Assembly: GCF_056712565.1 (NCBI RefSeq) | Contig: NZ_JBWXXM010000002.1 | Strand: one strand, 5' to 3' | Length of the DNA: 64,000 nt | DNA from: a plasmid | Part shown: positions 24,908 to 26,929 of the stretch, one piece after another | Numbering within the stretch: the first letter of the stretch is position 1 | Layout of the letters: each line of letters starts with the position of its first letter | Notes under the pieces: generated by a model | Told to the model about the DNA's origin: nothing | Database searches by the model: none | What the model saw: only the letters and a program-made list of their open reading frames with translations | Position numbers and translations under genes: made by a program

Positions 24908-25156
24908 ATGCAAACCCAAAAAGAAATTACAGTTGGCCAGATCTGGGAAGAAGTGGATCCAAGACTGATCCGGAAAGTGCGGGTTGTTGAGGTGGCCTCG
25001 TTAGAAGGGCCCAAAGGCATCCTAATCGAAAACGTGGAGTCTGGTCGTAAGAACTGGGCGTCGTCATCCCGCTTTAATGGAAAGCGTGGAGGGTATCGTC
25101 TTATTTGGGGTCAGTTTGGATATCGAAAATTATTGTACGTTAAGGCTATTTTTTGA
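24908..25156 (+). CDS. Small ORF (82 aa) running into the Tn3-family IR; possibly truncated or spurious
   Basis: Last 16 codons lie inside the 38-bp IR at 25107-25144. Confidence 0.2.
25107..25144. repeat. 38-bp terminal inverted repeat of a Tn3-family transposon
   Basis: GGGGTCAGTTTGGATATCGAAAATTATTGTACGTTAAG; GGGG...ACGTTAAG pattern; tnpA stop codon lies within it. Confidence 0.7.
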
Positions 25157-26120
25157 CCTCTCTACTTTAGCTGGCCTCAGCCGACGAAACTTACCGGAAG
25201 CCGGTATCCGGTTGCTTTTCCAGATATAATCGCCTGTCAGATTGATATGCTCCCAGCCCAACGGCGACAAATGCGACAGCAGTTGCTCGTTGATCTTCAG
25301 CCCTTTACGCTTCAAGGCCTCGACCGCTCTTTCCATGTAGACGGTATTCCACAGCGAGATAGCTGCCGTCAGCAGCGTCAGTCCACTGGCGCGATAGCTC
25401 TGATTTTCCGGTTTCCGGTCCCTGATTTCACCCAGGCGGTGCAGGAATACCGCACGCGCCAGCGCGTTACGGGCTTCTCCTTTATTCAGTCCCGCCTGTA
25501 CCCGCCGACGCAGTGCCGGATCGCGGAACCAGTCGAGCATAAACAGCGTTCGTTCAATACGGCCAATTTCCCTCAGTGCTTTGGCAAGTCCGTTTTGCTT
25601 GGGGTAGCTGGCAAGCTTTTTAAGCATCAGGGATGCCGTCACTGTTCCCTGCTTTATCGAGGTCGCCAGACGCAGCACTTCACGCCAGTGGATTTCAATC
25701 TCTTTCAGATTCAGGCTGGTCGTTGATATCAGTGACTGAAGTGCCGGGTATTGGTCCGCTTTCCCTTTGATAAACAGCTTCTTGTCGTGGAGATCCCTGA
25801 TTCGCGGACAGAACGCAAATCCCAGCAGATGCATCAGGGCAAAGACATGGTCGGTGATCCCCGGTAAGCTTTAGCCTGCTGGCGATATGCTTCAGCAGCG
25901 CATCAGAGGGTGGGATTTTTTTATCCGGGGCAAAGCCGACATTTTTCAGATAGCAAAGAAGGACGGCAAAACCAAAACGGCTGGCGGGTTTACGGTGAGC
26001 ACTGATAAGCGCCAGATCATGCTCACTGAAATACGCCATTCGGGTCAGCGTTAACTCATCTTCAGGCAATGCCAGTAATGATTCTCTATCCGACAGAGAA
26101 AGAATCTGCCTCCTTGCCAT
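25130..26120 (-). pseudogene. tnpA: Tn3-family transposase tnpA with large internal deletion
   Basis: N-terminal about 65 aa (MARRQILSLSDRESLLALPEDEL...) in ORF 25695-26162; C-terminal 234 aa in ORF 25130-25834; about 1.9 kb of a roughly 3 kb gene missing. Confidence 0.7.
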
Positions 26121-26287
26121 ATAGTTTCCCTCACAAATTATTCGATGCGGTATTTTTAACAAAAATGGTTATCGCATAAGGGTACACCCTGACGCCATAA
26201 TCAAAACGTGACGGCACACGATGAATGACATAACCTATATGCGATAGATTAAGTGCAATAACCTAAATGCGATAATGCGGTGGGAAA
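26121..26287. promoter_or_regulatory. Putative res site / divergent tnpA-tnpR promoter region
   Basis: Three copies of a TATGCGATA-containing motif (ATAACCTATATGCGATA, ATAACCTAAATGCGATA, inverted TATCGCATA). Confidence 0.4.
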
Positions 26288-26929
26288 ATGTTCATCAGAG
26301 CTTATTTAAGGGCATCGACGGAAGACCAGTTCGCCGATCGAGCAAAAGAGATGCTGGAGCAGTTCGTCCAGGAACGGGGGCATAAAATCGCCAGCTATTA
26401 CCGGGAAAATATCAGTGGCACAAAACTTGAGCGCCCGGAACTGGGACGCTTACTGATGGACAGTCACCACAATGATATTTTACTGGTCGAGCAGATAGAC
26501 CGTCTGACACGTCTCAGCAACAGCGACTGGATGACGCTAAAAAAACAGATAGAACAACATGAGCTGCGAATTGTCAGTCTTGATGTGCCCACATCATGGC
26601 AGGCACTGTCAGATAAGGATCCTTCTCAGGCCGATCCGATCACCCGCGCAGTAATAACCGCCATCAATAACATGCTTATCGATCTGATGGCCGCAATGTC
26701 ACATAAGGACTGGCTGAGCCGCCGCCAGCGGCAAAAACAGGGAATCGAGCGGGCTCATACAATTGGAAAGTACCGGGGTAAGCAAGCCGATCAGGAACGG
26801 CATCAGAAAGTCCTGTACTACCGGCAGGTAAAGAAACTGAGTATCCGGGAAACGGCGGATGCTACAGGCTACAGTGCTTCACAGGTTTGCCGGATACAAG
26901 CGCTTCATAAAAATAATGAAACTGCCTGA
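26288..26929 (+). CDS. tnpR: Serine recombinase (resolvase/invertase family)
   Basis: ORF 213 aa; N-terminal catalytic motif IRAYLRASTEDQ; divergent from tnpA remnant. Confidence 0.8.
   Translation: MFIRAYLRASTEDQFADRAKEMLEQFVQERGHKIASYYRENISGTKLERPELGRLLMDSHHNDILLVEQIDRLTRLSNSDWMTLKKQIEQHELRIVSLDVPTSWQALSDKDPSQADPITRAVITAINNMLIDLMAAMSHKDWLSRRQRQKQGIERAHTIGKYRGKQADQERHQKVLYYRQVKKLSIRETADATGYSASQVCRIQALHKNNETA

Follow-up and report, generated by a model that had tools for sequence, protein, structure and literature searches.

What left a Tn3-family transposon with a broken transposase gene, a divergently transcribed resolvase gene and a single terminal inverted repeat (IR) is the question raised by positions 25107-26929 of the plasmid stretch analyzed here (64,000 nucleotides, hereafter the window). 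Comparison with sister plasmids and intact relatives indicates that region 25107-31942 is the immobile relic of a ~9.3-kb TnEc1-like Tn3-family transposon on an IncHI2 resistance plasmid, a reading to which a probability of roughly 0.93 was assigned. Each oddity of the relic has a standard explanation: elements of this kind and their subgroup are already known, and the decay is ordinary and of a well-known type. Positions 24900-27300 recur with 100% identity in many plasmids from E. coli, E. fergusonii and Salmonella, ~200-260 kb in size and typed as IncHI2A. No description of this locus was found in the literature searched, only lists of mobile elements.

Insertion site and extent of the transposon

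Backbone identity with element-free IncHI2 plasmids ended exactly at 25106 and restarted at 32711. In an uninterrupted backbone (L006) these two points were ~2 kb apart, with an hns-like gene and small ORFs between them; in the window they were separated by 7.6 kb, consisting of the tnpA/tnpR core, a passenger block and IS1B (Table 1). The empty site in L006 reads ...GTCTTATTT|CCTGAAGG, and the transposon entered the IncHI2 backbone at 25106/25107, 5 bases short of where a small backbone ORF ends, with duplication of TATTT. The sister plasmid pEF01 (NZ_CP040806.1) was 99.98% identical over 22697-31942 and carries the same tnpA deletion at the same insertion site. Its element, 7,278 bp long and likewise tnpA-deleted, has two perfect IRs and TATTT on both sides, in agreement with the empty-site sequence. 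This is the 5-bp duplication characteristic of the Tn3 family, of which the window keeps the left copy only. In CP083532.1 an extra C stands between the right IR (IRR) and TATTT; a 6-bp or imperfect duplication was considered on that account and rejected, as pEF01 has a perfect TATTT pair. The C was absent from pEF01 and 16 other records (816 vs 817 aligned bases), and CP083532.1 has scattered indels.

The IR of the window, GGGGTCAGTTTGGATATCGAAAATTATTGTACGTTAAG, is a perfect Tn3-family repeat of 38 bp, with the GGGG start and ACGYTAAG end of that family, and the IRs of pCf.1_2, pEF01 and CP083532.1 match it exactly. Its partner was found in sister plasmids only: across the whole window no second copy was detected with up to 3 mismatches (0 expected in shuffles) or with up to 10 substitutions, and an inverted-repeat search of the whole window gave no partner, the other Tn3-type IRs belonging to Tn1721 only. 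An earlier sequence-only reading had described a Tn3-family remnant with one IR and none beyond tnpR. The family assignment was borne out by the 38-bp IR and by Pfam and NCBIfam matches of the tnpA fragments, and the absence of a second IR held throughout the window. The right boundary of that reading, at 26929, was too short, as the remnant runs on ~5 kb past tnpR, through passenger genes, to 31942.

Before its decay the element would have read, from left to right, IRL, tnpA (leftward), res, tnpR (rightward), AraC/DJ-1 regulator, MBL-fold hydrolase, MFS transporter, MBL-fold hydrolase and IRR. The second MBL-fold gene, cut short in the window, reaches its full 852 bp in pEF01 and CP083532.1. 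Among the plasmids of the collection, high-identity copies of the passenger block were found only beside this tnpR; elsewhere in the collection just the regulator and MBL pair was found, 81-83% identical, on Pantoea and Enterobacter plasmids.

Table 1. Features of the TnEc1-like relic and its borders, in window coordinates
Feature	Position	Strand	Basis
Left copy of target-site duplication, 5 bp, TATTT	25102-25106		Empty site in IncHI2 plasmids without the element; TATTT on both sides in pEF01
IRL, 38 bp, GGGG...ACGTTAAG	25107-25144	+	Single copy in the window; identical to both TnEc1 IRs
tnpA 3' fragment, codons 755-995, C-terminal part of DDE domain	25130-25857	-	PF01526 positions 188-389 of 389, E 3e-80
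tnpA deletion junction, 1,997 bp, 2-bp GA microhomology, frameshifting	25857/25858		Alignments to pLEC-b38d (L007), pCf.1_2 (L002) and L015
tnpA 5' fragment, codons 1-87, part of DUF4158 N-terminal domain	25858-26120	-	PF13700, E 9e-16
Res-like divergent control region, 167 bp, three copies of a 9-bp motif	26121-26287		Repeats found; putative res role from position
Motif copy TATCGCATA	26170-26178		Within res-like region
Motif copy TATGCGATA	26238-26246		Within res-like region
Motif copy AATGCGATA	26266-26274		Within res-like region
tnpR, intact 213-aa serine recombinase	26288-26929	+	Pfam Resolvase PF00239, E 7e-21
Conserved segment 3' of tnpR	26930-27054		96.7-97% identity to pLEC-b38d, pFORC2 and others (other passengers); divergence after 27054
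Passenger: AraC-type HTH regulator with DJ-1/PfpI domain	27293-28273	-	Pfam HTH_18, DJ-1_PfpI, HTH_AraC; WP_021571263.1 in pEF01
Passenger: MBL-fold hydrolase	28398-29177	-	Pfam Lactamase_B_2, E 3e-16; annotation of sister plasmid
Passenger: MFS transporter	29415-30605	-	Pfam MFS_1, E 2e-24; annotation of sister plasmid
Passenger: second MBL-fold gene, interrupted by IS1 past codon 249 of 283	31196-31942	+	ORF runs into IS1 end
IS1B, 768 bp, marks transposon truncation; own flanks without direct repeat	31943-32710	+	Ends read; 100% identical to pEF01 IS1B
Right copy of 9-bp IS1 target duplication, GGAGAATTG; IncHI2 backbone restarts	32711-32719		Same 9 bp left of the pEF01 IS1

The tnpA pseudogene and the divergent layout

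tnpA lies on the minus strand, from 26120 to 25130, adjoining IRL, and carries an out-of-frame internal deletion. When compared with full-length relatives, the window aligned in two blocks meeting at 25857/25858, with 1,997 bp absent in both comparisons, and the gap corresponded to codon 88 to codon 754 of 995. Amino-acid identity to full-length TnpA was 97.5% for the 3' fragment (residues 755-995) and 97.7% for the 5' fragment (residues 1-87). In the remaining N-terminal frame, the 87 TnpA residues are followed by a 54-codon out-of-frame tail ending at 25695. The minus-strand ORF 25130-25834 matched the last half of the DDE domain only (PF01526 188-389; NF033527 transpos_Tn3 positions 750-954) and the minus-strand ORF 25695-26162 the N-terminal DUF4158 only (E 9e-16; NF033527 positions 2-68); full-length 995-aa relatives scored 1,127 bits on NF033527. 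Both fragments are thus of a Tn3-family transposase (a DDE enzyme of ~1,000 aa with PF01526 and a DUF4158 N-terminus), and the window copy is a pseudogene. A copy on an IncHI1B plasmid (L015), 99.97% identical, was unbroken across the right-hand breakpoint of the deletion. The deletion lies at the 2-bp microhomology and removes codons 88-754; by homology, this span probably includes the greater part of the DNA-binding region and the beginning of the DDE domain. Transposase production is impossible because of this frameshifting loss.

By sequence, the closest named relative of the window element is TnEc1. The copy in pAVS0947-D (L012, 6001-9854; 3,854 bp) was used as reference; it bears the NCBI label 'Tn3-like element TnEc1 family transposase', in which TnEc1 is the ISfinder name. 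Both of its IRs were identical to the window IR (38/38), and its layout is the same, with IRL, tnpA leftward, intergenic region, tnpR rightward and IRR. Its TnpR showed 94.8% amino-acid identity to the window TnpR. For its TnpA the figure was 91.6% against the full-length relatives, and 91.8% and 92.8% against the two fragments in the window; nucleotide identity in the 3' part of tnpA was only ~83%. TnEc1 has no passengers, an intact tnpA and both IRs, whereas the window element originally had ~5.4 kb of passengers, and has the 1,997-bp deletion and no IRR. In IR, TnpA, TnpR and divergent layout, the window element belongs to the TnEc1 group.

Further TnEc1-like transposons, unnamed, were found in pLEC-b38d (6,322 bp, CDF transporter and cytochrome b), pCf.1_2 (6,900 bp, frmR-frmA-fghA) and pFORC2. 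Their IRs differ from that of the window element by 0-3 mismatches; they have its layout, are likewise flanked by 5-bp duplications, and were 94-95% identical to it in nucleotides over the tnpA fragments and 91-97% over tnpR. Unlike it they are intact with both IRs, and they carry other passengers past 27054. The full-length relatives have a tnpA of 995 aa (~1,012 aa in pFORC2) divergent from a gene for a 211-213-aa recombinase. Passengers in the subgroup are exchangeable and include a CDF transporter with cytochrome b, frmRAB, and cadR together with a P-type ATPase. The shared IRs and the perfect 5-bp duplications (GTGTT in pLEC-b38d, AATTA in pCf.1_2, TAAAT in pFORC2) confirm a transpositionally active subgroup with exchangeable passengers.

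The tnpR DNA was 100% identical to a stretch annotated as WP_001567361.1, an accession that the recombinase genes of the intact pLEC-b38d and pFORC2 transposons also bear. Among solved structures the nearest is the Tn552 Bin3/Sin-type recombinase (E 5e-6 only), a match too distant for a finer classification of TnpR. When TnpR was compared with the rest of the window at E<1e-3 no match was obtained, including in the Tn1721-derived region, which may hold no tnpR. TnpR does not appear to be a Tn21-type resolvase. Three conserved copies of the TATGCGATA motif, one inverted, lie between tnpA and tnpR; the 9-bp motifs were nearly invariant in five relatives, and the regions were 95% identical overall. 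The intact serine recombinase gene and the conserved repeat-bearing intergenic region form a candidate resolution module. Because tnpR is intact and has the same annotated protein accession as in intact transposons, tnpR and the putative res may still function, in multimer resolution or in recombination with related res sites. A promoter and terminator scan of 26000-27300 gave nothing above shuffled expectation.

Tn21 and Tn1721 have co-directional tnpR-tnpA, with res upstream of tnpR. The window element resembles their subgroup in its large DDE transposase (56-60% amino-acid identity), 38-bp GGGG...TAAG IRs and 5-bp duplications, but its tnpR and tnpA are divergent, and it falls outside the Tn21 subgroup as defined by co-directional tnpR-tnpA, res upstream of tnpR and a Tn21-type resolvase. 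A hybrid transposon, made by joining a Tn21-type tnpA to a foreign inverted resolvase module, could be suspected from the co-directional order in Tn21/Tn1721 elements, from a TnpA that outside its own group is most similar to TnAs3, ISPa38 and Tn1721-type transposases (56-60% amino-acid identity), and from a recombinase that is unlike classical Tn3/Tn21 resolvases, with Bin3 as its best PDB match, and has no counterpart elsewhere in the window. As a local event, however, this is refuted by every intact relative examined: a recombinase of the same 213-aa type, encoded divergently from tnpA across an intergenic region that is conserved, was found in TnEc1, pLEC-b38d, pFORC2, pCf.1_2 and a second TnEc1-like copy in pEA7_1. 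Hybrid origin is considered extremely improbable. Since TnEc1 and all intact relatives examined share the layout, there is no hybrid or rearrangement to explain, and comparison among these elements marks the divergent layout as native or ancestral to the subgroup, not made at this locus.

In the light of these results, the internally deleted tnpA reported in the earlier reading was confirmed by the two Tn3-transposase fragments and their junction, and its estimate of ~1.9 kb missing from the middle was close, the exact size being 1,997 bp. A Tn21-type N-terminus had also been proposed, which is loosely defensible, the likeness to Tn21/Tn1721 being just ~56-60% in amino acids. The divergent tnpR was recovered on the plus strand opposite the minus-strand tnpA, and the repeat-containing res-like region stood as to its repeats, three 9-bp copies in a 167-bp spacer, with a function suggested by position. 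Divergence had been set in contrast to the Tn21 type; it is no anomaly, as TnEc1 and the intact relatives have this layout natively.

Loss of the right end beside IS1B

The insertion sequence that cuts the transposon was 99-100% identical to annotated IS1B copies and has the attributes of IS1 (768 bp, terminal IRs GGTGATGCTGCCAACTTACTGAT / GGTAATGACTCCAACTTATTGAT, insA/insB ORFs, 9-bp duplication). In the window it is flanked by GATGCTGTA and GGAGAATTG, and the duplication GGAGAATTG is split between two plasmids, left of IS1 in pEF01 and right of IS1 in the window. The same 9 bp occur once in the uninterrupted backbone L006, and p265k has the same IS1/backbone junction as the window. Since IS1 is bordered on its right by a mer module instead of backbone in pEF01 and CP083532.1, an ancestral IS1 with both GGAGAATTG copies was reconstructed from two plasmids. 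Past the element, pEF01 continues with 2,027 bp of normal backbone up to an IS1B that matches the window copy at 100% identity. IS1B inserted 2,027 bp beyond the IRR position, with GGAGAATTG as target duplication.

Apart from 2,469 bp that are lacking (9247-11715 of the pEF01 piece L013), the window has the pEF01 arrangement. The lacking DNA consists of the final 442 bp of the transposon, with IRR, and of 2,027 bp of backbone in which the hns-like gene and two small ORFs lie. In the sister IncHI2 plasmids pEF01 and CP083532.1 all of this is preserved, from the 442-bp end with IRR through the TATTT duplication into the neighbouring backbone with its hns-like gene, whereas the window has lost it. 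A query across the right end of the transposon was covered to at least 80% by 21 records, 17 of them fully, including 129 bp of adjacent backbone. In the window lineage, 2,469 bp were lost between the IS1 left end and a point inside the last passenger gene, probably through an IS1-mediated adjacent deletion. In sister plasmids the IS1 left-end junctions were 0, 65, 129, 219 and 573 bp further along, in a nested series, and nesting of this sort with one IS end held constant is a classic hallmark of adjacent deletion by IS1. One further record of the collection, NZ_OY754378.1, matched across the exact window junction without a break.

The right end might instead have been lost if two IS1 copies in direct orientation, one in the last passenger gene and one in the backbone, had undergone homologous recombination, which would give the same sequence outcome. 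IS1 is abundant in these plasmids, and the window IS1 is without a flanking duplication, as expected under either mechanism. However, no sister plasmid was seen with a duplication-flanked IS1 at 31942, and at least five left junctions share one IS1, for which recombination would need five insertions in ~600 bp, each then recombining. Recombination between two IS1 copies was judged quite improbable and adjacent deletion is favoured. The window has a single IR because the 2,469-bp deletion, one edge of which is the left end of IS1B, removed IRR, and because one end is missing the relic is probably unable to transpose even with a related TnpA supplied in trans.

Order of events and distribution among plasmids

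The tnpA deletion junction was found in ~98 plasmid records, at one place each and nearly all of 140-440 kb, and the backbone/IRL junction in ~95. No TATTT insertion with an intact tnpA was seen in the plasmid collection, and the tnpA deletion is therefore taken to be old relative to the spread of the sublineage. It could have preceded the insertion, with mobilization in trans, or followed it; either order fits. The former supposes that the element arrived already defective, as a non-autonomous transposon with two good IRs that was moved into the IncHI2 backbone by a related TnpA. Every record with the insertion also has the deletion (~95 backbone/IRL vs 98 deletion junctions), the deleted form in pEF01 has two perfect IRs and a perfect TATTT duplication, and intact relatives with identical IRs exist on IncHI2 plasmids, e.g. 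pCf.1_2, all of which would suit such an arrival. A mobile non-autonomous element would, however, be expected at several sites, and the deleted form was found at one site only, in one place per record; the junction counts fit equally well with an early in-situ deletion followed by clonal inheritance. Arrival in the defective state is considered unlikely.

The module of tnpR, passengers and IRR was also found on the IncHI1B plasmid (L015), with tnpA truncated at its 3' end, and on an E. albertii IncI-gamma/K1 plasmid (L014), with a tnpA/IRL variant of 75% amino-acid identity and no matching duplication. pEA7_1 was considered as the intact parent and rejected as a hybrid, with tnpA and IRL of the 75% amino-acid variant and flanks that form no duplication. 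Recombinant mosaics are typical of the Tn3 family.

Tn3-family transposons move by replicative transposition via a cointegrate and show target immunity. It could be argued that the relic is not inert, and that the IncHI2 sublineage keeps tnpR/res as an accessory module for multimer resolution or as a recombination hot spot, the lone IR as a target-immunity determinant against incoming TnEc1-like transposons, and the passenger operon as a selected detoxification function. If true, this would account for the unchanged persistence of one defective element in ~100 plasmids; it is regarded as distinctly doubtful.

For annotation, the precise label of the locus is a TnEc1-like transposon that carries a tnpA pseudogene and is cut by IS1B; beyond annotation, the significance of this immobile relic is small. 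The IncHI2 sublineage that carries it spreads resistance genes in E. coli and Salmonella, and the junctions 25857/25858 (tnpA deletion) and 31942/31943 (IS1/MBL) are usable as markers of this lineage. In some members the nested IS1 deletions remove the plasmid-borne hns-like gene, a loss that could affect plasmid silencing or fitness.

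Further insertion into the relic

In the sister plasmid pDR162-CEF-A (about 12000-18401 of the compared region), the match to the window breaks off within the first MBL-fold passenger gene, at 28897; a few kb past the matching point comes an ISEcp1-qnrE2-araJ unit. The relic is therefore shown to be a recurrent target for further insertions. The TnEc1-like transposon had itself struck a small backbone ORF five bases short of the ORF end. This ORF encodes 67 aa in the empty-site plasmids (WP_001194555.1); the window form (24908-25156) runs 15 codons into the IR, giving 82 aa, and is annotated WP_071940961.1.

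Other TnEc1-like copies

An intact 6,900-bp TnEc1-like transposon was located in pCf.1_2 (11471-18370 of the compared region), within the same IncHI2 backbone as the window, carrying frmR-frmA-fghA (formaldehyde detoxification) as cargo. Its site, flanked by the duplication AATTA, is the equivalent of window 34214-34218, only ~1.5 kb from the point where the window backbone resumes. It belongs to the same transposon group as the window relic and is an independent insertion. The E. albertii plasmid pEA7_1, which carries the hybrid element, has a second TnEc1-like copy (16743-21047 of the compared region), with a TnpA 76.7% amino-acid identical to that of pLEC-b38d, a 213-aa recombinase divergent from tnpA, and an 'ester cyclase' gene just past tnpR.

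Neighboring genes and mobile elements

A plasmid-borne H-NS family gene and two small ORFs, retained in other IncHI2 plasmids, were removed by the IS1-anchored deletion (between window 31942 and 32711); this loss could have consequences for the fitness of the plasmid or for silencing. Further left of the HNH_2-domain genes, annotation of the sister plasmid places a HipA/HTH toxin-antitoxin pair. The same IS21 is found in p265k, a plasmid with the same IS1/backbone junction, at another backbone position, adjoining the equivalent of window 17524.

Coordinates of neighboring features (window positions unless a plasmid is named)
Feature	Position	Detail
H-NS family gene, absent from window	empty-site backbone (L006) 10154-10558; pEF01 (L013) 10040-10444	Pfam Histone_HNS_N + Histone_HNS
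Two paralogous HNH_2-domain endonuclease genes	21622-22437; 23989-24846	IncHI2 backbone, just upstream of insertion site
IS21 copy	36767-38898	minus strand
istA of IS21	37624-38796	minus strand
istB of IS21	36827-37627	minus strand
Tn1721-type element	47295-58361	
Its three 38-bp IRs	47299-47337; 52789-52825; 58319-58357	
Its partial tnpA	47339-49084	equivalent to aa 406-984
Its tet(A)/tetR-like DNA	~50486-52566	
Two IS26 copies	~53141-53960; ~56392-57211	interrupt the Tn1721-type element
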